A stretch of DNA of 62,683 nucleotides from a virus (taxonomy: Duplodnaviria > Caudoviricetes), in the IMG/VR virus record IMGVR_UViG_3300024262_000030, positions 1 to 62,683 of that record; one strand, 5' to 3'. The first letter of the stretch is position 1; each line of letters opens with the position of its first letter. Positions 2,455 through 62,177 of this stretch are shown piece by piece. The translations under genes were made by a program, and so were the position numbers. Under the pieces are notes generated by a model that ran no database searches, had not been told where the DNA came from, and saw only the letters and a program-made list of their open reading frames with translations.

Positions 2455-2530
2455 GTCGCCGTAGTTCAAGTGGCAGAACACTACATTGGTATCGTAGAGG
2501 TTGTGGTTTCAATTACCACCGGTGACTCCA
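2455..2530 (+). tRNA. tRNA-Thr(GGU)
   Basis: GTCGCCG/CGGTGAC acceptor, loop ttGGTat, CCA. Confidence 0.87.
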
Positions 2531-2601
2531 TTTTCAAATTTGGTGAGTGACCTATCCGAAGAAATTAAAGAGGATATTGTCATTGATCAAATTTTATTTA
2601 T

Positions 2602-2677
2602 GCTCCTGTCGTCCAATTGGAAAGGACATCGGTCTTCTAAATCGAGAATCTGAGTTCAACTCTCAGCGGGAGTACCA
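2602..2677 (+). tRNA. tRNA-Arg(UCU)
   Basis: TCGGT-ctTCTaa-ATCGA, ACCA. Confidence 0.92.
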
Positions 2678-2687
2678 TTTTTATAAA

Positions 2688-2715
2688 TTGACCAATTGAA
2701 AAACAATGGTAAAAT
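2688..2715 (+). promoter_or_regulatory. sigma70-type promoter for element B
   Basis: TTGACC-16-TAAAAT with extended TG, 7 nt before the RNA stem. Confidence 0.65.
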
Positions 2716-2722
2716 ATTCATT

Positions 2723-2854
2723 TAGATATTAACAGCAATTAATACTCATGCAAAACGATGATATGCGTTGGTTCGAATCCCTGCCGCCCTCACAAATTAA
2801 AAGTTTTGAGGGTGTAGCCAAATGGTTAGGCAATCGTGTAGTAAATATATCTAG
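2723..2854 (+). ncRNA. YrlA-like Y RNA (element B): circularly permuted tRNA domain on a CAGCA stem
   Basis: TAGATAT/ATATCTA stem, taaCAGCAA, then ACGAT, T-arm GGTTCGAATCC, loop-closed acceptor CGCCCTCA/TGAGGGTG, D-arm TAGCCAAATGGTTAGGC, ATCGT. Confidence 0.8.
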
Positions 2855-2861
2855 TAATCAC

Positions 2862-2932
2862 AGTCCAATAGATCAATGGTAGATCGTTACCCCGACATGG
2901 TAAAGACGACGGATCAAAACCGTCTTGGACTA
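2862..2932 (+). tRNA. tRNA-Val(GAC), CCA not encoded
   Basis: AGTCCAA/TTGGACT, TTACC-ccGACat-GGTAA; C33 and atypical T-loop. Confidence 0.8.
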
Positions 2933-2974
2933 TTTTTTAAAACTATCTTGGCTTGTTCACAAAAATAATATATA

Positions 2975-3595
2975 ATGAGTAAATTAAAAGACAAAGGAAA
3001 TTTCATAGAATGGTCGAAAGATCAAATTGAAGATTATACAGATCTTCAATCTGATATAAGAAAGTATATGGAAAAATGGAATATTCGTGATAAAGACACT
3101 GTAATTCAAGAAGGTGAAGATATGATGGTCGGACGTATGTTGGGATTTATCAAATGTAACGATGGAAAACATGGGTGGGATTGTTCAAATGAATCGGAAA
3201 CCAAATTTCTTGAGGTAAAGCAAAGTAGTTGGGAAGTAGATCAAAATTCAGCAACTTTCAACGACACCACGCTTGCAAAAGCTCTTGAGTTTTGTGAAGA
3301 AAATACATATGTTGGATTGAGTGTGTCGTCATCAAAAGGAATTGAATTTATTGTATTTGGAAGCGAACCTACGCTCGGTGAAATGTTAGCGGAAAAAGTT
3401 AAAAATAGAAAACCTGGAAGTCGTTCAACTCCGTCTATGAGTATCAAAGCTCTAATTGAAATTGGATATGATGTATGTATTCCAAGTGAAGATAAAAGAG
3501 ATATGGTGTATGACAGACTTTCAAAAAGCAGATCAATCAAAAAACTTTTAGCTAAAGAAGATATTAAATTAATTGAAGATGTTAAAGTTAAGTAA
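2975..3595 (+). CDS. Putative PD-(D/E)xK restriction endonuclease
   Basis: E..GWD..LEVK motif pattern; overlaps the downstream methyltransferase gene. Confidence 0.55.
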   Translation: MSKLKDKGNFIEWSKDQIEDYTDLQSDIRKYMEKWNIRDKDTVIQEGEDMMVGRMLGFIKCNDGKHGWDCSNESETKFLEVKQSSWEVDQNSATFNDTTLAKALEFCEENTYVGLSVSSSKGIEFIVFGSEPTLGEMLAEKVKNRKPGSRSTPSMSIKALIEIGYDVCIPSEDKRDMVYDRLSKSRSIKKLLAKEDIKLIEDVKVK

Positions 3596-4589
3596 AGATT
3601 TTATTGGTAAGAAGAATTACCTAAAAGATTTATCAACTGAAGATTTTGAGAAACATTTACCTGAATTGGCAAAAATTTTGTCATATGCTGATTACCGATA
3701 TAACTACGATGATTCAGAATTGAAAGCTGATTGGCGTAAGTTATGTGATTTTTCAGATAGTAATTTATTATTAACGTCATCTTCTACTAGAACTGGAATG
3801 AAATTGTGTGAACACTTTTTCCCAAACTTCTTTGATATACAAAACAACAAAAATCAAAAGTTTGCTGATTTCTGGAATAAAGATGATCTCCAAAAAGTTT
3901 TACAGTGGAATAGAAACAGTCACAGCACACCATATCTTTCAGAATTACGCAGAGGGATTTACTTTTGTTTTGGATTGACGAAAAATACAATGTTCAGACC
4001 ACATCTTTCAAAGTGTGTTTCTTTGTATTATAAGCAATTTGAATCGTTGAATGTGGTAGATCCTTGTTGTGGGTGGGGTGGAAGATTACTTGGGACTGTT
4101 GCTGCTGGAAATAACTACATTGGATTTGAACCGAATGTGGAAACTTTTGGTTATCTGAAACAGTTAGTTGATTTTTTAGGCATACACAAATATGTTACGC
4201 TTTACAATGATGTTGCAGAGAATGTAGACAAATATGACTTTCCGTTAGCAGACGTGGTCTTGACATCACCGCCTTACTTTGACCTTGAAATCTACTCAAA
4301 TGAAGACACTCAAAGTCACCAGTCTTTTACCTGCTATGAAGAGTGGGTTGATGGTTGGTTGAAAGTTGTAATTCTAAAATTCGGAGAAAGATTGCATGCA
4401 GATGGGGTATCTTGTTGGAATGTACATAACATCGGCAAGATGAAAATGATTGAAGACGTTGAAAAGATACATTTGGATGCCGACTATATCCATGATGTTG
4501 ATTTCTCATTAGGTTCATCAGCAAGACAGTCAAATAAAAATACAAAGAAAAATCAAGATTTGACAAGATGTTTTAAAAAAACTTCTTGA
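3579..4589 (+). CDS. Amino (N4-C/N6-A) DNA methyltransferase
   Basis: DPCCGWGG SAM motif, GFEPN, TSPPY catalytic motif. Confidence 0.88.
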   Translation: MLKLSKDFIGKKNYLKDLSTEDFEKHLPELAKILSYADYRYNYDDSELKADWRKLCDFSDSNLLLTSSSTRTGMKLCEHFFPNFFDIQNNKNQKFADFWNKDDLQKVLQWNRNSHSTPYLSELRRGIYFCFGLTKNTMFRPHLSKCVSLYYKQFESLNVVDPCCGWGGRLLGTVAAGNNYIGFEPNVETFGYLKQLVDFLGIHKYVTLYNDVAENVDKYDFPLADVVLTSPPYFDLEIYSNEDTQSHQSFTCYEEWVDGWLKVVILKFGERLHADGVSCWNVHNIGKMKMIEDVEKIHLDADYIHDVDFSLGSSARQSNKNTKKNQDLTRCFKKTS

Positions 4590-4665
4590 CTTTTTATAAT
4601 TTGTAATTTATATTGTAATTACGAAAAGACGAAATGCCTGAACTACAAAAATTAAGTTTGTTAAA

Positions 4666-51286: not shown

Positions 51287-53224
51287 ATGGCAACATTCAA
51301 AACAATCGCCGAAGGTTACAAAAAGAGAAAAGATGAAACATTCTCTCTCGAAGAATACATGGAACTTTGTAAAACAGACAAAATGGCTTATGCTACTGCC
51401 TCCGAAAGGGCGTTAGATGCAATAGGTCAGCCAGAGTTTGTTGATACACAGAAAGATCCAAAGCTTGGAAGAATATTCCAAAACAGAACAATCAAGTTAT
51501 ACCCAGCATTCAAAGATTTTTACGGCATGGAGGATGTCATTGAAAAAGTCGTTGGTTATTTCAAACACGCTGCTCAAGGGTTAGAGGAAAAAAGACAGGT
51601 ATTATACCTACTTGGACCTGTTGGTGCTGCTAAATCAACATTGGCCGAAAAAGTCAAGGAATTGATGGAAGCTAGACCGATTTATGTCCTGAAAGCGGGA
51701 GAAGCAGTTTCTCCAGTTTTTGAATCTCCACTTGGGTTATTCAAGACAATCGGTGCTGATTTACCTGAGATATCAGGCGAATACGGTATACCGGAAAACA
51801 GATTGAATGGAATGCTTTCGCCATGGGCGATTAAACGACTAGATGAATTTGATGGAGACATCACAAAATTCTCAGTGGTAAAAATGTATCCATCTAAACT
51901 TCGTCAAATTGGTATCATGAAAACTGAACCAGGTGACGACAACAATCAAGACATTAGTTCATTGGTTGGTAAAGTTGATCTCCGCCGTTTGGATGAATTG
52001 AGTCAAAGTGATCCTGATGCATATAGCTTCAGTGGTGCTTTAAACAGAACAACTCAATGTTGTATGGAGTTCGTGGAAATGTTCAAAGCTCCAATCAAAA
52101 CTCTTCACCCATTATTAACTGCCACACAAGAAGGCAATTATGTTGGATCGGAAGAAATTGGACCTATTCCATATGAAGGTGTGGTATTGGCTCATAGTAA
52201 TGAATCAGAGTGGAAGACATTCAGAAACAACAAAAACAATGAGGCGTTTCTTGATAGAATCTATCTTGTGAAGGTGCCTTACACATTACGTTGGGAACAA
52301 GAACAGAAGATTTATCAAAAGTTGTTGAATTCTTCAAATCTTGGCGATGCTGCATGTGCTCCAAAAACATTGGAATTGCTTTCTAAGTTTTGTGTATTGA
52401 CACGACTTCGTGAACATGAGAATTCAAATAAGTATACCAAAATGAGAGTATATAATGGTGAGAATTTGAAAGATGTTACACCTGGAGCTAAAAGCTTACA
52501 AGAATATCGTGACTTCGCTGGAGTTGATGAAGGTATGGAAGGTATTTCTACCCGTTTCGCTTTCAAAGTGTTGTCAAAGACATTCAATCATGATCCTGTT
52601 GAGGTATCTGCTGATCCAGTTCATTTGATGTATGTGCTTGAAGAAGCTATCCGTCAAGAACAATTCGGAGAAGACCGTGAAAACAAATACATAGATTACA
52701 TTAAAACCGTAATCACTCCAAAGTATTTTGATGAAATCGGAAAAGAAATTCAAAAGGCGTATCTTGAAAGTTATTCCGATTATGGTCAGAATATATTTGA
52801 CAGATACATTGATTACGCTGATCACTGGATTCAAGATCAAGATTTCAAAGACCATGATACAGGTCAGTTGATCTCAAAGGATGCTCTTGATGAAGAGTTG
52901 GAACAGTTGGAAAAACCTGCTGGAGTTTCAAATGCACAAGATTTTAGACATGAGGTTGTAAACTTCGTCTTGAGATCAAGAGCTAGAAACAAAGGTAAGA
53001 ATCCAGCATGGAACACTTATCAGAAGATGAGAGACGTGATTGAGAAAAAGATGTTTGCTTCTACGGAAGAATTGTTACCTGTAATCTCTTTTGAGACAAA
53101 GAAAGAGAAGAAGGATCAAAAGAAACATGATGACTTCGTATCACGCATGGAAAGTAACGGTTACACGAAAAGACAGATCAAACGTGTAGTGGACTTTTAC
53201 ATGAGATATTCAAAAAGTAACTAA
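51287..53224 (+). CDS. prkA: PrkA/YeaG AAA+ serine protein kinase family
   Basis: GLEEKRQVLYLLGPVGAAKS, TEPGD.NNQDIS, EFVEMFK, HSNESEW, GISTRF. Confidence 0.96.
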   Translation: MATFKTIAEGYKKRKDETFSLEEYMELCKTDKMAYATASERALDAIGQPEFVDTQKDPKLGRIFQNRTIKLYPAFKDFYGMEDVIEKVVGYFKHAAQGLEEKRQVLYLLGPVGAAKSTLAEKVKELMEARPIYVLKAGEAVSPVFESPLGLFKTIGADLPEISGEYGIPENRLNGMLSPWAIKRLDEFDGDITKFSVVKMYPSKLRQIGIMKTEPGDDNNQDISSLVGKVDLRRLDELSQSDPDAYSFSGALNRTTQCCMEFVEMFKAPIKTLHPLLTATQEGNYVGSEEIGPIPYEGVVLAHSNESEWKTFRNNKNNEAFLDRIYLVKVPYTLRWEQEQKIYQKLLNSSNLGDAACAPKTLELLSKFCVLTRLREHENSNKYTKMRVYNGENLKDVTPGAKSLQEYRDFAGVDEGMEGISTRFAFKVLSKTFNHDPVEVSADPVHLMYVLEEAIRQEQFGEDRENKYIDYIKTVITPKYFDEIGKEIQKAYLESYSDYGQNIFDRYIDYADHWIQDQDFKDHDTGQLISKDALDEELEQLEKPAGVSNAQDFRHEVVNFVLRSRARNKGKNPAWNTYQKMRDVIEKKMFASTEELLPVISFETKKEKKDQKKHDDFVSRMESNGYTKRQIKRVVDFYMRYSKSN

Positions 53225-53272
53225 TTCAAAAGGATAACGGGGGAGAGAAAATCTCTCCCGCCCTTCTTTACT

Positions 53273-53470
53273 ATGCCGAGACAAGAAAACAAAAAACGGA
53301 TTGAAGTACGACTTGAAAAAGAAATCGTAGACGATCTAACATACGATGTACTTTACATTGACAATAAAGAAATTGTAGCATTCCATTTGGAAAACATTGA
53401 AAAATTAAATTTGGAACATAACAATGCAACAATTTTACAATTTTTAACAGACTATTTTAAACAGCCATGA
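53273..53470 (+). CDS. Hypothetical protein inserted between prkA and yeaH
   Basis: ATGA overlap with yeaH. Confidence 0.55.
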   Translation: MPRQENKKRIEVRLEKEIVDDLTYDVLYIDNKEIVAFHLENIEKLNLEHNNATILQFLTDYFKQP

Positions 53471-54768
53471 GTAATTTCCGGGTAATTGACAGAAGAAAAA
53501 ATCCAAAGGGTAAATCAACAAGCAATCGCCAGAGATTCATTGATCGTGCTAAAGAAGCAATCAGAGAATCAATCAAGGATAAAATCCAAGATAGAAAGAT
53601 TGGAAATACCACAGGCGGTGAAAATGTAAATATTCCAAAAGAAGGAATTAAAGAACCTACGTTTGGACACGACTGGAAAACAGGCAAAAAACAAGATGTT
53701 AGACCTGGAAACAAAAGTTACAAAAGCGGAGACAAAATAAAGAAGCCGAAAGACGGTCAAGGTGGAAAGGGAGCTGGAAAAGGACAAGGTTCAGACGATG
53801 ATGATATATCAGAAGACGAATTTGAGTTTGCTTTAAGTAAAGATGAATTTTACAACATTTTCTTTGAAGATTTGGAATTGCCAAATTTGAAAGACAAGGA
53901 AATGAATGAAATCAAGCATTACAAAATGATTCGTGAGGGGTATCGCCGTGACGGCAGCATCAGTAACCTTGACAAGTTGCAATCATACAAAAATTCACTT
54001 GGAAGACGTATGGCATTAAAACGCCCACCTAAGAAGAAGCTTTATGAATTGGAAGAAGCACTTGAAAAGGCAAAAACCAAAGCGGAAAAAACAAGACTTG
54101 AAACTGAGATCGCTGCTTTGAAGAAAAAGTATAAAACAGTACCATTCTTTGACGAAAACGATATGCGTTTCAGAAACTTTACACAAAAACCTCAACCAAA
54201 TAGTAAGGCTGTGATGTTTTGTGTGATGGATGTATCTGCTAGTATGGGTGAGCATGAAAAAGACCTTGCCAAACGATTCTTCATGTTGTTATACATGTTT
54301 CTTGAGAGAAAGTATGATCAAACTGATATCATTTTTATTCGCCATCACACCGACGCAATAGAATCTACAGAGGATGAATTCTTCCACTCCAAAGAGACTG
54401 GTGGAACCAAGGTATCTTCAGCAATCCACAAATTGAATGAGATTCGTAAGGAACGTTATCCGACAAACGAGTGGAACGTATATGTTGCACAATGCTCTGA
54501 TGGAGACAATTGTGGTTCAGCTGATACAAAGGAATGTATGGATATTATTCAGAATGAAATATTACCAGTAACTCAGTATTACGCTTACATTCAAACGGAA
54601 TATCAAAGAATGAGTTATGGTGGTTCATATTTTGACAAGGAATATGGATTGTGGGCATACTACGAAGAACTTAAAAACTCAAACAAACACTTTGAAATGA
54701 AACAGGTTGCTGAAGCTCCTGACATTTGGAAAGTATTCATGGAATTATTTAAAAAGCAAGACGCATAA
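53467..54768 (+). CDS. yeaH: YeaH/YhbH (DUF444) vWA protein
   Basis: IDRR..KS..NRQRF, FEDLELP, MDVSASM, FIRHH, ETGGT, SDGDN. Confidence 0.95.
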   Translation: MSNFRVIDRRKNPKGKSTSNRQRFIDRAKEAIRESIKDKIQDRKIGNTTGGENVNIPKEGIKEPTFGHDWKTGKKQDVRPGNKSYKSGDKIKKPKDGQGGKGAGKGQGSDDDDISEDEFEFALSKDEFYNIFFEDLELPNLKDKEMNEIKHYKMIREGYRRDGSISNLDKLQSYKNSLGRRMALKRPPKKKLYELEEALEKAKTKAEKTRLETEIAALKKKYKTVPFFDENDMRFRNFTQKPQPNSKAVMFCVMDVSASMGEHEKDLAKRFFMLLYMFLERKYDQTDIIFIRHHTDAIESTEDEFFHSKETGGTKVSSAIHKLNEIRKERYPTNEWNVYVAQCSDGDNCGSADTKECMDIIQNEILPVTQYYAYIQTEYQRMSYGGSYFDKEYGLWAYYEELKNSNKHFEMKQVAEAPDIWKVFMELFKKQDA

Positions 54769-54776
54769 GGAATAGA

Positions 54777-56351
54777 ATGGCAAAACGAAACAAATTAATG
54801 TATACCGATTCTGAATGGAATTTTGAAAGTTTAGATCGTGCATACGAAGAGATTGAAAAGATTGCAGTTGAAGAATTGAATCTGAGTTATTATCCAAATC
54901 AGATTGAGATAATTTCATCGGAACAAATGCTTGACGCATATACATCAGTGGGTATGCCTATGATGTATAACCACTGGAGTTTCGGTAAATCATTCGTACA
55001 ACAACATGACCAATACAAACGTGGTCAGATGGGTCTTGCTTACGAAATCGTTATCAACTCTGATCCATGTATCAGTTATTGTATGGAAGAAAATACCATG
55101 ACGATGCAGACGTTGGTAATTGCACATGCTGCTTTCGGTCACAACTTCTTTTTCAAAAACAACTATCTTTTCAAAGAATGGACGGATGCAAGTAGTATCA
55201 TTCCATATCTTAGTTTCGCTAAGAAATACATTGCGGAATGTGAAGAAAAGTATGGTCAAAGAAATGTTGAAATGATCTTGAATTCATGTCATGCTTTACA
55301 AAGTCATGGTGTAAATAGATACAAACGACCACGCAAGTTATCATTACACGAGGAACATCTTAAACAAGAAGATAGATCAAAATTCTTGAGTGAAAATGTA
55401 AATCACTTATGGGAAACTTTGACAAACAAACGCAAAACTGCAAAAGATGTTGAAGAAGCTTCTTCATTCTTGAAGGAACCGGAAGAAAACATCCTGTATT
55501 TCCTTGAGAAACATTCTCCTGTGATGGAACCTTGGCAACGAGAGATTATCAGAATTGTGAGGAAGATTGCACAGTATTTTTACCCACAGGCACAAACAAA
55601 AGTGATGAATGAGGGAACTGCCACATATGTTCACTATTACATCATGAATCGTTTATATGAAAAGGGTTTGATCAGCGAAGGTCATATGCAAGAGTTTTTG
55701 ATCTCCCATACTGGCGTTGTATTTCAACCTGACTTTGATGATGTTGTAGTTTACAAAGACAAAAACGGAGAAGAAAAGGCGTATTCAAGATACAGCGGAA
55801 TCAATCCATATGCTTTGGGATTTGACATGTTTAAAGATATTCAGCGTATTTGTGAGAATCCAAGTGAGGATGAAAAGTATTTGTTTCCTGATGTTGCTGG
55901 TCAAGATTTCATAGGGGTATTTCACAACGCCGTGGAAAATTTCAGAGATGAAAGTTTTATCCGCCAATTTTTAAGTCCTGAACTTGTTAAAAAATGGAAA
56001 ATGTTTATCATGACTGATGATGCATCGGATAAAGAAAATTACTCAATTGATGCAATTCAAAATGAAGATGGATTTGAATCCATACGAGAAGCATTAGCCG
56101 AAAGACATACAATTTCAAACTTTTATCCTGAGATAAAGATCACGGATGTTGATTTGAAAGGCGACAGAACTATATATCTGACTCATACGGCACACAATGA
56201 AATGGAACTTGGTAAAGATGACATTGAAGATGTGATGAAACATCTTTATAGATTGTGGGGTCATAACATTGTAATTGAAAGTCGGAACGCAGATGATGGA
56301 AGCCTCATTGAAGATTTCGCAACTGATTTATCAGACGAAGACGATGATTGA
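54777..56351 (+). CDS. ycgB: SpoVR/YcgB family protein
   Basis: GMP..Y.HWSFGK, AYEIVINS, HAAFGHN.FF, KVMNEG.A, NPYALGF. Confidence 0.95.
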   Translation: MAKRNKLMYTDSEWNFESLDRAYEEIEKIAVEELNLSYYPNQIEIISSEQMLDAYTSVGMPMMYNHWSFGKSFVQQHDQYKRGQMGLAYEIVINSDPCISYCMEENTMTMQTLVIAHAAFGHNFFFKNNYLFKEWTDASSIIPYLSFAKKYIAECEEKYGQRNVEMILNSCHALQSHGVNRYKRPRKLSLHEEHLKQEDRSKFLSENVNHLWETLTNKRKTAKDVEEASSFLKEPEENILYFLEKHSPVMEPWQREIIRIVRKIAQYFYPQAQTKVMNEGTATYVHYYIMNRLYEKGLISEGHMQEFLISHTGVVFQPDFDDVVVYKDKNGEEKAYSRYSGINPYALGFDMFKDIQRICENPSEDEKYLFPDVAGQDFIGVFHNAVENFRDESFIRQFLSPELVKKWKMFIMTDDASDKENYSIDAIQNEDGFESIREALAERHTISNFYPEIKITDVDLKGDRTIYLTHTAHNEMELGKDDIEDVMKHLYRLWGHNIVIESRNADDGSLIEDFATDLSDEDDD

Positions 56352-56936: not shown

Positions 56937-57068
56937 ATGAGTAATAAAACTGCTATTCAAGTATCAACTGACATTAGAGACAAACTCAAAGAGTATTGTT
57001 CTAAACATGGATATAAAATGTCTGCGTTGGTTGAGAAGCTTATACTACGGGAGATAGACGATGAGTGA
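56937..57068 (+). CDS. Small ribbon-helix-helix-like protein (not in ORF track, 43 aa)
   Basis: MSNKTAIQVSTDIRDKLKEYCSKHGYKMSALVEKLILRE; similar to 61202-61336. Confidence 0.65.
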   Translation: MSNKTAIQVSTDIRDKLKEYCSKHGYKMSALVEKLILREIDDE

Positions 57069-58080
57069 GGTTTTAAATTGTGAAATTTGTGGATGTGGAA
57101 TGAAAACCAGAATCAATGGTTCACATCTGAAACGAAAGCATGGAATTACCCTTGATGAGTATAAATCAAAATTTCCAAATGCTATAATTGGAAAAAGAAA
57201 TCCAAATCATAAAAAATATGTCTGTGAGATTGATGGAAAATTATGCAAAAATAGTAGTTCTCTTTCACGGCATCTAAATAAGAATTATGATATGTCATTG
57301 GAAAATTATTACATTGAATATAAATTGGGCGGAAAACAACCAATGTGCAAATGTGGATGTGGGGAATTTACAGCATTTAAAAATATGGAGATTGGGTTTT
57401 GTGATTATATAATAAGACATGCTCCTGTTTGGAATGTAGGACTTACAAAAGACAATGATGATCGTGTGAAGAATTCTAATGCGGGTGGTTGGCAAAAAGG
57501 ATTAACCAAAAATACCAATTCAATTTTAAAAATACACTCTAAAAAACTTTCTGAGTTTTGGGAAAATAATCCAGATAAAAAGCTGGAGATGGTGGAAAAT
57601 TATAAAAAAACTATGTTGGAAAAATACGGAGTTGATAACTTTTCAAAAACCGAAGAATTCGTGGAAAAATTTGAAAATACGTGTTTGGAAAGATACGGCG
57701 TAACGAATCCATATTTTTCCAATAAATGTAAATGGAAATTTAAAAATTACACATTGCCATCTGGGAGAATTGTTAAATTACAGGGATATGAAAATTATGC
57801 AGTTGATTTTCTATTGTTAGAATTCTCGGAAAATGATATAACATATGAAAACGAAGATATACCATCAATACCATATATAGAAAATGAAAAAGACCGAAAT
57901 CATAAACCGGATTTATATATCCATGGTGAAAATTTATTAATAGAAGTAAAATCTACTTTTACTTTCGGATTACATGAGGATAATGTTTTACTGAAACAAA
58001 AATTTGCAAAAGAGTTGGGATATGATTATCATATTTTAATATTTGATCGCAAAGGAAACTTAATTAAAAAATATGAATAA
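57061..58080 (+). CDS. Putative homing endonuclease (Zn-finger repeats, PD-(D/E)xK C-terminus)
   Basis: CEIC..HL..H, CKCGCG, LEKYGV repeats, QGYE, PDLY..IEVKS. Confidence 0.78.
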   Translation: MSEVLNCEICGCGMKTRINGSHLKRKHGITLDEYKSKFPNAIIGKRNPNHKKYVCEIDGKLCKNSSSLSRHLNKNYDMSLENYYIEYKLGGKQPMCKCGCGEFTAFKNMEIGFCDYIIRHAPVWNVGLTKDNDDRVKNSNAGGWQKGLTKNTNSILKIHSKKLSEFWENNPDKKLEMVENYKKTMLEKYGVDNFSKTEEFVEKFENTCLERYGVTNPYFSNKCKWKFKNYTLPSGRIVKLQGYENYAVDFLLLEFSENDITYENEDIPSIPYIENEKDRNHKPDLYIHGENLLIEVKSTFTFGLHEDNVLLKQKFAKELGYDYHILIFDRKGNLIKKYE

Positions 58081-59608
58081 AGACGAAGAATTGAAAGGAA
58101 AACTAGATCGTCAGCGCAAGAAGAAAATTCTCTTGTTAGCTGACGATCTGTGACTGAGAATGCACAGTGGAATTGCTACGATTTCCCGCGAGATTGTACT
58201 TGGTACATGTCACAAATATGATTGGGCACAACTTGCAGGAAGCGTCAAACACCCGGACAAAGGAAAAGTGTTTGACTTGTCAGATGCAGCTAAACAAGAG
58301 CGTGGAGTTGATGATGCATACGTAAAATTATACCCTACTGATGGGTATGGTAATCCAGATGTATTGAATCAATTGATTCAACTGGAAAAGCCAGACGCAA
58401 TCCTACATTTTACAGATCCTAGATTTTGGATGTGGTTGTATCAGATGGAAAGAGATATACGTAAAAATATCCCATTGACGTATTTAAATATTTGGGATGA
58501 TTGTCCAGCTCCCATGTGGAATAGGCCGTTTTATAAAAGTTGTGATTTATTGATGGGTATATCCAAACAGACGGTGAACCTTAATAAGATAGTGCTTGGA
58601 AAAAATGATTTTGTGTGTGCTGACGATGTAAAATCTCCAGCGGACTGTAAAGGCAAATCAATCATTCATTACGTTCCACATGGAATTGATGAAAATATGT
58701 TTAAGCCATTGGATAAAAACGATCCACTTGTGCTTGAAATGAAGAAGAAGATTCTCAAGAATAAGGATTACAAATACATCTTGTTTTCAAACAACAGAAA
58801 TATCCAACGCAAACGTACTTCAAATATCATATTGGCATACAGAACTTTCTGTGATTCATTGCCTAAAAAGGATGCTGAAAAATGTTGTTTATTGTTACAT
58901 ACACAACCTGTTGATGACAATGGAACTGATTTGCCAACTGTGGTGAAAGCTTTGTGTCCTGATTATGACGTAGTCTTCAGCGCTGGCAAGGTTGAACCGA
59001 AACAAATGAATGCACTGTATAACTTAGCAGACGTTACAATCAACGTAGCTTCAAACGAAGGGTTTGGGTTGAGTCATGCTGAGAGTTTAATGACTGGTAC
59101 GCCTATCATAAACAACGTTACAGGTGGATTGCAGGATGGTTGTGGGTTTACGGATGACAATGGAAACTCAGTTGAATTTTCAGCGCAATGGGGCAGTAAT
59201 CACGATGGTCGTTATAAAAAACATGGTAAGTGGGTTAAGCCTGTGTATCCTGTTACACGATTGTTGCAAGGATCACCTCCTACGCCTTATATTTTTGACG
59301 ACCACGCTAAATGGGAAGACGTTGCGGATGCTATGATGTTTTGGTATTTGGCTGGGGATGAAAAACGCAAAGAGTGTGGAGAAGCTGGAAGACAGTTTGT
59401 TCTTGGTGAAGGTGGATTGAACTCAACAAACATGTGTAACCAATTGATTTTTGCAATGGAAACAACAATGGATAATTTCACACCACGAAACAAATTCAGT
59501 TTGCATACAACAGATGAACATGTTGGACATGAAATGAAAAATGGAATGGGATTTGAAATTCCAAAAATTGATGTTGAAAAAATCAAACAAGAGGTTGAAC
59601 AATTATGA
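58073..59608 (+). CDS. GT-B (GT4-like) glycosyltransferase with in-frame TGA at 58151-58153
   Basis: KKKILLLADDL*LRMHSG in one frame; VPHG, NRN..RK, NEGFGL..ESL..GTP. Confidence 0.85.
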
Positions 59609-59955
59609 TCACGAAGCAAGAACTTATACGAGGTACCCGCCAAGAACTTGAAGAATATTTCAATGAATTTGTGTTGGATATTCCGCATGCTGATGTGAAT
59701 TTTACCAAGGATGTAACTCCTGAAAAAACACATTGGTTGATTGGGGAAACTGCTTCGGAACAATTGGATGAATTAATGACCGAACAAAATAATATTGCTG
59801 CCAAAGAAAGCAAAATGTATGTCGGTCCATTGTTTTTTATGAGTAGAGACATAAAAACATCCGAAAACGAAGAGAAGATTGAAGAAGTCGTATTGAAACT
59901 TGAATCGTTTTGGGTACAAATAGTAGAAGAGGCAAAAGATGAAGATAAAGCATAA
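59605..59955 (+). CDS. Hypothetical protein
   Basis: Coupled ORF. Confidence 0.6.
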   Translation: MITKQELIRGTRQELEEYFNEFVLDIPHADVNFTKDVTPEKTHWLIGETASEQLDELMTEQNNIAAKESKMYVGPLFFMSRDIKTSENEEKIEEVVLKLESFWVQIVEEAKDEDKA

Positions 59956-60511
59956 ATTATACACACAACCGTTTAATGGTCAAGCTGGAGAATACGACTA
60001 TTACCCACATCAGGAGTATCTGTATACATTGATGGAGAACTATTCAAGTTTACATGTCACCAAATCAAGACAAATTGGGATAACTACACTTGCATTAGAT
60101 TATGCAGTAAAAAAATGTAATGAGGGACAAAAAGTTGCATATGTCGCTAAAAGTAACATGATACAACACGTTAAATGTATGTTGCCTAATATGCCTCGTG
60201 AATTGGTATTTTTGTCAAATCATAAACAGAATAAAGATTTTGAGCCGGATGTGGTCATTTTTGACGAATTTGGATATATTGACTTGGGTGAAATTCGTAG
60301 TTTTGCTGCTCGGTTTAGTATCACTGAAGAACGTAAACCTGTGAAAGTAATTTTCTTGGAAACAAAAAGTGAAAGAAATGTATTGACAAACGTTGAAAAA
60401 CATGTTACAATACCGTTTAAAGATACTGTTCTGTATAATCCGAAAAAAGAAGCAGAACTTAGAAAAAACCTCAGTGACGAACATTACAAAATGGAGTTTG
60501 AATGTAAATGA
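59939..60511 (+). CDS. Truncated terminase large-subunit ATPase-like protein
   Basis: YPHQ (Q motif), KSRQIGITT (Walker A), VIFDEF (Walker B), EFEC; only 190 aa. Confidence 0.65.
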   Translation: MKIKHKLYTQPFNGQAGEYDYYPHQEYLYTLMENYSSLHVTKSRQIGITTLALDYAVKKCNEGQKVAYVAKSNMIQHVKCMLPNMPRELVFLSNHKQNKDFEPDVVIFDEFGYIDLGEIRSFAARFSITEERKPVKVIFLETKSERNVLTNVEKHVTIPFKDTVLYNPKKEAELRKNLSDEHYKMEFECK

Positions 60512-61155
60512 AAGACGAAGAATTACAAAGACATAACGTTAGAATAGGATATTTGGAGGTATTAAGTAGATTTCCAGATGTAACAGCCGCACAAGCGATT
60601 TCATATTCTGATGCATTGCTTAAAGAAAAAGAGGTTGGGACTATAGACAATCCAGATTTATCCGAAATCAAAGATCAAATTGCTAGGATGCAACAAGAGA
60701 ATGATGAAAGATTCAATCAGTATACTGATCCAGATTTATCCAGAGATTTTCCAGCCGCTAAGCTTGGTGAGATTGTCAGTAAAGCTGATAAAATTGTTAA
60801 AGGTGAAGGCAAAAAGATTGAGATTAAAACTCCATTCAAAGAAGCAATAGAAGAAACTGAGAAGGAGTTCAAAGCCAATCAAAGTCAGAGTATAACTCCT
60901 GCTGAAGAGTTTCCTGGATTGGATATGGTTGATCCTAAAGCGCGTAAAAAAGAGGCTGATCAAAAACCACAACAAAAAGTGGTTGATGAAGAAAGGGCTC
61001 CAATGCCTATGCCTGTGAAATATGAAGATAGAATGAAATTAGTTGAAAGTCAAGCATTTCAACCGAGAGGAACCGGTATAGAACCTGGAACAGATAAATT
61101 TGACAGCCGTGGGATGGGAGAATCCGGCGGAGAAATTAACAAACGAGGAAATTAA
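60508..61155 (+). CDS. Hypothetical protein
   Basis: Coupled ORF, charged low-complexity. Confidence 0.65.
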   Translation: MKDEELQRHNVRIGYLEVLSRFPDVTAAQAISYSDALLKEKEVGTIDNPDLSEIKDQIARMQQENDERFNQYTDPDLSRDFPAAKLGEIVSKADKIVKGEGKKIEIKTPFKEAIEETEKEFKANQSQSITPAEEFPGLDMVDPKARKKEADQKPQQKVVDEERAPMPMPVKYEDRMKLVESQAFQPRGTGIEPGTDKFDSRGMGESGGEINKRGN

Positions 61156-61201
61156 TTTGTAGATTTTTACACTTTTCTATTTTTCTACTATAGTTATACA
61201 T

Positions 61202-61336
61202 ATGAAAACATTAAAGATAAGTGATGAAACGCATAGAGAATTAAAAATCTATTGCGCTAAAAACAATCTTAAAATTAATGAATATGTTGAAAAATTAATA
61301 TTATCAACTATAAATGAAGAAGATGAAAAACATTGA
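61202..61336 (+). CDS. Small ribbon-helix-helix-like protein (not in ORF track, 44 aa)
   Basis: MKTLKISDETHRELKIYCAKNNLKINEYVEKLI. Confidence 0.65.
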   Translation: MKTLKISDETHRELKIYCAKNNLKINEYVEKLILSTINEEDEKH

Positions 61337-62177
61337 AGTCAAATGTAAATTTTGTTCATGTGGGTTTTTAACTACCGAGGCTAGAATTAAGATAGGTCGT
61401 GGGAAATACTGCTCTCGGAGATGCTTATACGATGACATGAAAAAACCGAAATTAAACTGTGTTGAGTGTGGGGTGGAAATTGAAAGAGGAAATAAATTTT
61501 GTTCAAATGAATGTAACTATTCAAATGTTAAAAATACTGGTAAAAATAAAACAGGTAAATATATTGTAAAAAGTTCAAAGAGTAAATTGAATTTTTGTGG
61601 TAAATTGTGTTACGGTGAATATAAAAAAGGAAAGACCGACCTCCATAAGAAAAAAACAGGAGAATATAAAAATTGTGAAATGTGTGGCGTGGAGTTTTAT
61701 GCCCAAAAACATCAATCACATTACAAATGTTGTTCAGCAAAATGTGCTAATAAAAGCAGACGTGGAAAACCAAATCCCAAACTTTCGGAAAAACTAGCAA
61801 CGATGTATTCAGATGGAACATTAAATCCCAAACGTAATTATTATAAACAGGGATATTATACATCAACAATTACAGACGAAGAAGAGTTTTATAGTAGTAG
61901 TTATGAGTTGAAATATATGGAGATTCTAGATAACAATGGTGTATTTTGGACTAAAAAGCACAAAATAATTATACCGTATATTGACGACAATATGGTGAGT
62001 AGATATTACATTCCTGACTTTTTAGTTGAAAATGTATATCTGGATGAAGTAAAACCTTCAAATTTGGTAGATTCCTCTATTGATAATAATCATTTAAAGA
62101 TGGAAGCTGCAAGGATATGGTGCCAAGATAACGGTTTGGAATTTAGAGTTATAACAGAAAAAGAATTGAAAATATGA
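61314..62177 (+). CDS. Putative homing endonuclease (Zn-finger repeats, TnsA-N-like nuclease)
   Basis: CxxC..CSxxC repeats; SSYE, YIPDF, EVKP, K..AA..C, F.VITE. Confidence 0.8.
   Translation: MKKMKNIEVKCKFCSCGFLTTEARIKIGRGKYCSRRCLYDDMKKPKLNCVECGVEIERGNKFCSNECNYSNVKNTGKNKTGKYIVKSSKSKLNFCGKLCYGEYKKGKTDLHKKKTGEYKNCEMCGVEFYAQKHQSHYKCCSAKCANKSRRGKPNPKLSEKLATMYSDGTLNPKRNYYKQGYYTSTITDEEEFYSSSYELKYMEILDNNGVFWTKKHKIIIPYIDDNMVSRYYIPDFLVENVYLDEVKPSNLVDSSIDNNHLKMEAARIWCQDNGLEFRVITEKELKI

Follow-up and report, generated by a model that had tools for sequence, protein, structure and literature searches.

Coding gaps and stop-hops in described systems

In T4-like phages, a homing endonuclease gene and a translational bypass gap are known to form one mobile unit, in which the MobA/gene 60 gap lies at the 3' edge of the element and protects against self-nicking; according to the accessible text of this 2022 preprint, no similar bypassing has been reported in phages beyond the relatives of gene 60 (bioRxiv 10.1101/2022.08.31.505936). 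In E. coli, low-level stop-hopping between matched codons is described for synthetic constructs (PMC5009743; bioRxiv 10.1101/2024.12.09.627546, both as far as their available text goes), and the available part of a 2016 review presents in-frame stop-hopping as shown with synthetic constructs only, with no natural case known (PMC5009743). No paper on a gapped phage glycosyltransferase or on a natural stop-hop was found in the open-access literature searched. The DNA considered here is IMG/VR record IMGVR_UViG_3300024262_000030, hereafter the window (the whole stretch analysed, one phage-like contig of 62,683 bases with 35% G+C). It carries a glycosyltransferase gene interrupted near its 5' end by six bases, a TGA stop and a CTG codon, directly after another CTG codon. 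The reading favoured here, with moderate confidence, is that these six bases are a mobile "micro coding gap" that would be decoded by a Leu-to-Leu hop.

A stop between two identical leucine codons

The preliminary description of this DNA had read ATG 58073 as the start of a leader continuing through CTG-TGA-CTG-AGA-ATG in frame into an open reading frame (ORF) of 482 amino acids (aa), and every one of these elements was located in the sequence. Its leader also agrees with the sequence, except in wording, as the final L is already encoded by the first CTG. The features around the junction are the following.

57061-58080, + strand: free-standing homing-endonuclease-like gene, 339 aa (Pfam DUF7487; Cys/His zinc-finger-like N-terminal segment)
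58073-58075, + strand: ATG starting the leader, overlapping the TAA of the upstream nuclease ORF
58078-58080, + strand: TAA of the nuclease gene, overlapping the leader ATG in ATGAATAA
58073-58150, + strand: leader of 26 codons, MNKDEELKGKLDRQRKKKILLLADDL, the last L being the first CTG
58073-58117, + strand: N-terminal extension of the leader, codons 1-15, MNKDEELKGKLDRQR, absent from most gap-less relatives
58118-58150, + strand: leader codons 16-26, KKKILLLADDL, strand beta-1 of the N-terminal Rossmann domain
58148-58150, + strand: CTG (Leu), proposed take-off codon; a Leu codon stands here in 11/11 gap-bearing contigs
58151-58153, + strand: stop TGA, read from the sequence
58154-58156, + strand: CTG read from the sequence, proposed landing codon
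58151-58156, + strand: the six extra bases, TGA plus CTG; the insert can equally be written as 58148-58153
58157-58159, + strand: AGA, proposed resume codon for the invariant Arg of the family, excluded by a start at ATG 58160
58160-58162, + strand: ATG of the long ORF, in frame with the leader CTG-TGA-CTG-AGA
58160-59608, + strand: body of a GT-B/GT4-type glycosyltransferase, 482 aa, otherwise intact (Pfam PF00534, Foldseek, relatives)

As the preliminary description had stated, TGA is a normal stop elsewhere in the window: it closes 26 of the 62 + strand ORFs of at least 100 aa, which ruled out an altered genetic code. The 13 tRNA genes of the window include no suppressor. They form a cluster at 31-2932 with three tRNA-Leu genes (anticodons TAG, TAA and CAA), of which the one with TAG could read both the take-off and the landing CTG.

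That the six bases stem from an error of assembly or sequencing, or from a rare variant that the assembler fixed, is hardly credible. What such an error has in its favour is coverage of the site by the probable source run only: in three runs from other studies (X2-X4), near-identical DNA was found, but the short contigs do not reach 58056-58179. The probable source run itself (X1) yields a Logan contig of 43.8 kb that covers 57400-59400 at a word depth of 25.4 and matches the window with 0 differences and 0 gaps over 2001 bases, the six bases being retained; it is a second assembly of the window's own sample and not independent material. Three of the junction types described below, moreover, were each recovered from two IMG/VR datasets. 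A search for RNA runs containing the stretch gave none.

The glycosyltransferase and its unbroken relatives

The 482-aa ORF matches Pfam Glycos_transf_1 (PF00534; 37.5 bits against a cut-off of 26.4, 2.2e-9) and PHROG 2170, "glycosyltransferase" (1.7e-23). Its read-through translation, modelled by AlphaFold2 with an alignment of 54 sequences, gave a predicted local distance difference test (pLDDT) score of 87.9 and a predicted TM-score (pTM) of 0.89. In the model, residues 17-24 form a strand that is joined by a loop (25-32) to a helix (33-45), so that the break falls in the loop and KILLL lies in a strand, in line with its earlier interpretation as the first beta-strand of a GT-B fold. Foldseek retrieved solved GT4-type enzymes (3oy2 at 7.7e-18, PimB' 3oka, MshA, BshA and 2jjm) with TM-scores of 0.7-0.78 by target, the two Rossmann-like domains resembling those of GT4 enzymes. 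In the 54 sequences, E329 is invariant and E337 nearly invariant (read-through numbering), a pair that we take to be the E-x7-E motif of the C-terminal domain. Arg R29, in the same numbering, is invariant in 54/54.

Full-length relatives are 45-76% identical to the window's enzyme, and the window has six extra bases compared with this family. The 35 relatives fetched first (2 cultured phages, 9 IMG/VR loci and 24 metagenome loci, some contigs being in both collections) are all unbroken, reading ..KKILL[LM]xDD[LIV]R[MIL]xSG.. at 45-56% identity; the cultured phages are Flavobacterium phage immuto and Microcystis phage Mel-JY01. The six bases are also absent from 36 of 37 further loci showing the N-terminus, the exception being locus L058. 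A protein search gave at least 8,000 relatives, the closest among the matches listed being P0003 (76% identity), which reads ILLLADDLRMHSG. Among 119 relatives listed, 112 are unbroken through the motif, 2 start inside it and 5 start at M[HN]SG. The statement in the preliminary description that homologues read ..DDLRMHSG is thus borne out. The exact 27-base stretch just 3' of the gap has no match in IMG/VR.

The five relatives starting at M[HN]SG were considered as further gapped genes and dropped, such calls being choices of start site. The first 160 residues of one of them, P0093, are encoded in L044/L083, where the DNA is unbroken upstream. For P0106 and P0079, the scans missed their own DNA, with best full-length matches of 77% and 78% and one partial match of 122 residues at 86%.

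Most gap-less relatives begin MxKKKILLL, without the 15-codon extension. Six gap-less proteins (P0081, P0089, P0103, P0118, P0120 and P0001, from immuto) have 12-17 extra N-terminal residues before KKK/ILLL, in loose resemblance to the leaders of the cassettes. These extended proteins could represent the ancestral state, or else copies in which the extension outlasted the gap. If the hop takes place, the gap explains why gene callers deliver an N-terminally truncated enzyme, as they do for the window's own protein, P0002.

Readthrough, in which a near-cognate or suppressor tRNA would read UGA 58151 and add two residues to the beta-1/alpha-1 loop, seems quite improbable. The gap of the window is in frame, and the insert would fall within the modelled loop at residues 25-32. 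The stop is followed by C, and in E. coli termination at UGA-C is weak. Against these points, none of the relatives compared carries two extra residues at the break, and no suppressor occurs among the tRNA genes of the window, which is only part of a phage genome. Readthrough is moreover unworkable for the gaps of 5, 8 and 13 bases found in the same cassette family, whose members use UGA, UAA and UAG alike.

The same codon boundary is broken in ten other contigs

In L058, the one exception among the 37 further loci, a stop stands directly after the same Leu codon and is followed by a change of frame. IMG/VR was therefore scanned for DNA encoding K-I-L-L-L-x-D-D-L and then a stop. The version with TAA or TGA returned 9 loci, 8 of this gene and 1 chance match, and the version with TAG returned 2 loci, both of this gene. 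With the window, the gap-bearing set comprises 11 contigs from 10 datasets with 8 different junctions. In the other 10 contigs (9 datasets), the gap measures 5, 6, 8 or 13 bases, and in 9 of them its last three bases are a Leu codon from the box of the take-off codon. The junctions are listed below as take-off codon, intervening bases and landing codon.

CTG TGA CTG: window, 6-base gap
CTT TGA CTC: L090 and L098, 6-base gap
TTG TAA TTG: L093, 6-base gap
CTT TAG CTC: L102 and L103, 6-base gap
CTT TGAGG CTA: L095, 8-base gap
CTG TGAAAAGTCA CTA: L091, 13-base gap
CTG TGAAAAGTCG CTG: L094 and L096, 13-base gap
TTG TAA TG: L092, 5-base gap, equal to TTG TAA TTG minus one T

The two 13-base gaps share the form CTG TGAAAAGTC(A/G) CT(A/G), and the junctions found in two datasets each are those of L090/L098, L094/L096 and L102/L103. 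Every junction is followed by (A/C)GA ATG, with AGA in 10 and CGA in 1 of the 11 contigs, and Arg-Met-x-Ser-Gly follows the gap in all 10 other contigs. A stop lies directly 3' of the take-off codon in 11/11 contigs, UGA, UAA and UAG all being used; since a stop after Leu was required by the scan, this 11/11 is not an independent count. Skipping the gaps of 6, 8 or 13 bases from Leu to Leu restores ..DDL-R-M-x-S-G in 10 of the 11 contigs.

In the same 10 of 11, the take-off and landing codons belong to one Leu box, CTN never being paired with TTR. The take-off codon is CTN or TTG and never TTA, even though gap-less loci use TTA most often at this site. A first sample of gap-less loci (n=51) has TTR in 24, CTN in 16 and another codon in 11, and a second sample (n=120) has TTR in 86, CTN in 30 and TTT in 4. 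Were the landing codon an independent draw, the probability of same-box pairs in six junction lineages would be about 0.001. A scan of prokaryote genomes, which serves only as a control, gave 37 pattern matches in 185,579 genomes, none of them (0/37) followed by R-[MLI]-x-S-G-[IV]. The unbroken form (..D-D-L-R-M) is present in more than 120 copies in IMG/VR, against 10 gapped ones.

Because the same codon boundary is broken in a structured way in 10 other contigs, the break is, to judge from this comparison, more than chance and not a private lesion of the window. By the preliminary description, its proposal would have been refuted if relatives never had the six bases; the opposite was found, 10 further contigs being gapped at exactly this site. 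Its hop from CUG to CUG over UGA thereby gains support, as relatives share both the stop and a same-box landing codon from which such a hop may be read. Readthrough cannot be the general route across these junctions, given the change of frame at the 8- and 13-base gaps and the presence of UGA, UAA and UAG alike.

The 6-base junctions of the window, L090/L098, L093 and L102/L103 have the exact form of the synthetic stop-hops of 1987 that are cited in the available text of two sources (PMC5009743, bioRxiv 10.1101/2024.12.09.627546), CTG-TGA-CTG in the window. Unlike those low-level constructs, the junctions described here are natural and recurrent and include 8- and 13-base forms.

L092, which shares its contig with L058, lacks one T relative to L093 at its junction (around 615-652) and has no intact landing Leu codon. 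The copy could be degraded, the base could have been missed in sequencing, or this junction could require another kind of shift.

A nuclease gene and a leader travel with the gap

The product of 57061-58080 matches Pfam DUF7487 (1.6e-38), ROS_MUCR in its zinc-finger segment (1.7e-8) and, weakly, PHROG 3339, "homing endonuclease" (3.2e-7). Its homologue in L090 matches DUF7487 (1e-45) and a TnsA-like endonuclease N-terminal domain (0.0084, below cut-off), and the alignment of the window and L090 nucleases keeps a ..PD..-E-V-K motif. A homologue lies directly upstream of the gapped gene in L090/L098 (36% identity, intact), in L093 (44%, frameshifted) and in L092 (50%, cut by the contig end). Only a remnant of the last 42-52 codons is left in L091, L094 and L102, and L095 has neither an upstream nuclease nor a remnant. 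Thus, a nuclease homologue or its 3' remnant stands upstream in 10 of 11 gap-bearing contigs, L096 and L103 being counted as remnant-bearing through their local identity to L094 and L102. In a tblastn search of 98 loci with the window's nuclease, the matches fell solely in gap-bearing loci and none beside gap-less ones. A nuclease profile scan of IMG/VR, of limited reach as it used two N-terminal peptide patterns, found three contigs, all gap-bearing.

The leader belongs to the same unit. Gap-bearing leaders have 14-16 codons before (K/R)(K/R)K-ILLL, which places take-off at codon 25-27, and overlap of the leader ATG with the stop of the nuclease gene, or of its remnant, is seen in cassette types A, B, D and E. 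Among members of one cassette type, identity is 92-99% over the 81 bases that precede the stop and drops at the gap, to 69-74% over the next 450 bases of the gene. Comparison of the gap-less L068 with L099 and L058 gives a filled and an empty site, in which 1.5 kb, consisting of the nuclease gene and the leader, stands in place of 140 bases and homology begins again where the gap ends; this comparison concerns cassette type B and not type D, the type of the window. The N-domain of L068 is 87% identical to that of L092. To judge from these alignments, the gap travels with the DUF7487 nuclease gene, or its remnant, and with a cassette-borne leader.

In a FastTree phylogeny of 174 N-domains, the gap-bearing rows are scattered and require 6 changes. 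L092 pairs with the gap-less L068 (support 99), and L091 falls in a supported set with 8 gap-less rows. On this scatter, either the cassette would therefore have entered different alleles, or the gap would have been lost many times.

DUF7487 nucleases also occur in cultured T4-like Vibrio phages, with a C-terminal domain 31-35% identical over about half of the window protein. Annotated as "endonuclease" or "HJR family nuclease", they too are free-standing between conserved genes, in their case just after the major capsid gene. They differ from the window's nuclease in having no glycosyltransferase beside them and no gapped gene following. Among nuclease homologues in cultured Vibrio, Burkholderia and Yersinia phages, none lies beside a glycosyltransferase, and no cultured model was found.

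The anatomy of the locus recalls the MobA/gene 60 element as the available text presents it (bioRxiv 10.1101/2022.08.31.505936, PMC5009743). In both, the nuclease gene is directly upstream, the element brings an N-terminal extension and its own copy of the coding stretch that it replaces, and the gap is the 3' edge of the element, opening with a stop after the take-off codon and closing at a matched codon. Both also show progressive loss of the nuclease while the gap is kept, and gapped and ungapped alleles in close relatives. The differences concern the gap (5-13 bases here, about 50 there), the take-off codon (Leu here, Gly there) and the nuclease (DUF7487/PD-(D/E)XK-like here, HNH there). 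The host gene here is a glycosyltransferase that the element does not cut in two, whereas it is a topoisomerase subunit in T4. No take-off stem-loop was detected here in the 7 loci folded (see below), again unlike gene 60. The likeness is one of anatomy, with no homology claimed.

Constraint on the leader and the fate of the gene

Over the 11 codons of (K/R)(K/R)KILLLxDDL, the five cassette types differ from one another by 4-8 synonymous and 0-2 non-synonymous changes, the latter being K/R and S/A. By this pattern of substitutions, the leader peptide is under selection at the protein level.

This constraint bears on the idea that insertion of the cassette inactivated a dispensable glycosyltransferase and left no functional product. 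Such a dead gene is improbable. It would suit an accessory gene, gap-less in more than 120 copies of IMG/VR and gapped in only 10, and it would suit the degraded junction of L092. The remaining ORF of the window is nevertheless intact over 482 codons, as are bodies of 449-456 codons in L091 and L095, where the nuclease gene is lost. The leader peptide is conserved through many synonymous changes in five cassette types, and the arrangement of stop and landing codon persists although the stop may be UGA, UAA or UAG.

Split expression is harder to set aside. Translation would end at UGA 58151 and start again at AUG 58160, six bases after the stop, yielding an enzyme without strand beta-1, and the 26-aa leader would supply this strand in trans or be dispensable. 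No unusual decoding is required, and a stop lies 5-13 bases before a conserved ATG in 11/11 contigs, a spacing that suits translational coupling. The family, besides, tolerates splitting: the two Rossmann halves are separate in L092, L093, L094, L098, L102 and Mel-JY01. This explanation, on the other hand, loses the Arg that is invariant in 54/54 sequences, whose retention requires decoding to resume upstream of ATG 58160, and leaves unexplained why a same-box Leu codon precedes the Arg codon in 10 of 11 contigs. In terms of the model, one strand of the N-terminal Rossmann domain would have to come from a separate peptide of only 26 aa. A weak point is the lack of a Shine-Dalgarno-like motif, which about half of the window genes have, before ATG 58160: when both ATGs were checked, none was seen there, as in 31 of the 62 window ORFs. 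Re-initiation at ATG 58160 is the main rival to the hop and a serious one, although we hold it to be unlikely.

Splitting of the enzyme into two ORFs at the linker between the Rossmann domains is seen in many relatives, gapped or not. This includes L092 (644-2122), L093, L094, L098 and L102, Mel-JY01 (L002, 1459-2950), L050, L061 and L070-L074. In L094/L096, about 350 bases separate the two halves. In L089, residues 160-475 are matched over 2,139 bases (2501-4639) against about 950 expected, so that roughly 1.2 kb is inserted in the C-terminal half of this relative's gene.

Local signals were sought around the take-off codon. RNAfold over -30 to +45 at 7 loci, with 200 shuffles each, gave z values from -1.9 to +0.8. 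By our own count, a purine-rich run resembling a Shine-Dalgarno sequence (AAGGAGG, AAGGAG or AGGAG) occurs in every leader type about 47-58 bases before take-off: AAAGGAAAA at 58094-58102 in the window, with others in L091/L094, L093, L095 and L102. These runs sit in the coding frame with no start codon after them, and may reflect Lys, Gly and Glu codons only. The AGA before the ATG was considered as a sign of selection and dropped, AGA being the commonest codon at this place in gap-less loci (22/51 and 77/120).

A hop from leucine to leucine as the proposed mechanism

The proposed cassette would consist of the DUF7487 (PD-(D/E)XK-type) gene at 57061-58080, the leader at 58073-58150 and a short untranslated gap, and would stand in place of the original 5' end of the glycosyltransferase gene. 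The leader would re-encode the start of the transferase, as a 15-codon extension followed by strand beta-1 (KKKILLLADDL). Ribosomes translating this leader would come to hold peptidyl-tRNA-Leu on CUG 58148 with UGA in the A site. The tRNA would then unpair, the mRNA slip by six bases and the tRNA re-pair with CUG 58154. Decoding would resume at AGA 58157, giving a single chain ..DDLRMHSG.. as in the unbroken relatives. By analogy with T4, the gap probably spoils the nuclease target, and DNA bearing the cassette would be immune to its own nuclease. In our interpretation, the cassette may be a miniature, unrelated analogue of the MobA/gene 60 bypass cassette.

Such a hop would account together for the stop after the take-off codon, the same-box Leu pairs, the frame-changing gaps, the use of three stops and the kept Arg codon. 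The comparison establishes the sequence itself, the repeated break at a single codon boundary, its tie to the nuclease gene, the fall in identity at the gap and the constraint on the leader protein. The hop and how efficient it would be, any anchoring of the nascent chain by the extension and the immunity are inferred from it. The preliminary description had proposed the hop itself, and had left out the nuclease-linked cassette, the leader that the cassette carries and the rival of re-initiation.

The broader proposal is that these junctions may be natural stop-hops, in which homing-endonuclease cassettes would protect themselves by gaps of 5-13 bases, tRNA-Leu would re-pair at the first downstream cognate codon, and the extension would lengthen the nascent chain to hold the tRNA; confidence in it is evenly balanced. 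If the hop is true, bypassing would not be a T4 one-off but a recurring answer for homing endonucleases that target conserved coding sequence. The locus would also offer a minimal natural system of 6-13 bases, with variable take-off, stop and landing, for studying bypassing. Endonuclease-borne micro coding gaps would then be a general and overlooked way for selfish DNA to live inside conserved phage genes.

Several points weigh against the hop. L092 is without an intact landing codon, and no stimulator is identified, as RNA structure around the take-off site was not significant in any of the 7 loci; unstimulated stop-hops are described only as "low-level" in the available text of the sources cited above. 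Termination followed by re-initiation would equally fit a stop that lies 6-13 bases ahead of a conserved ATG. Both this ATG and the Arg codon before it may be native recipient DNA, and AGA being the commonest codon there in gap-less loci, its retention alone proves little. The comparison as a whole rests on metagenome assemblies. Cassette type D of the window is known from this one contig, and the read support for its six bases comes solely from the probable source sample. The FastTree phylogeny was built on 150 columns, 79 of its 168 inner branches being unsupported.

Two further systems resemble the Leu-to-Leu junctions in part. The mitochondrial "byps" of Magnusiomyces capitatus, as the available part of the 2016 review describes them (PMC5009743), are likewise short, apparently mobile blocks in conserved coding sequence that are skipped in translation. 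They occur at 81 sites in many genes, with an unused codon in the A site and relaxed matching, and no endonuclease linkage is described in that part of the text; here, there is one site with a true stop and well-matched Leu codons. A short gap deduced from sequence in another phage gene is a second likeness, though in the text available that case hinges on a rare UUA and no endonuclease cassette is described. The take-off codon here, in contrast, is CTN or TTG and never TTA.

Neighbouring genes

A second glycosyltransferase-like gene runs from 62174 of the window onward and shows no gap over the 170 codons present. A homologue of it lies downstream of the first glycosyltransferase gene in 29 related loci, and the two genes are directly adjacent wherever coordinates were checked, as in L001, where the first ends at 2871 and the second starts at 2871-2874. 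In the window, about 2.5 kb (59605-62177) separate them, occupied by five ORFs that have no match in the loci of the relatives.

59605-59955, 59939-60511 and 60508-61155: ORFs without family match, between the glycosyltransferase genes
61202-61336: 44-aa ribbon-helix-helix-like ORF
61314-62177: second nuclease gene, with a TnsA-like endonuclease N-terminal domain (2.8e-10) and zinc ribbons

Small ORFs of 43-44 aa (56937-57068 and 61202-61336) precede and overlap the two nuclease genes of the window. Both have weak ribbon-helix-helix or repressor-like matches, below the Pfam cut-offs, and each small ORF may form a two-gene module with its nuclease gene. Further upstream, at 51287-56351, stands a trio of genes for a PrkA kinase (PF08298, 4.6e-162), a DUF444 protein (3.9e-151) and SpoVR (4.6e-160).

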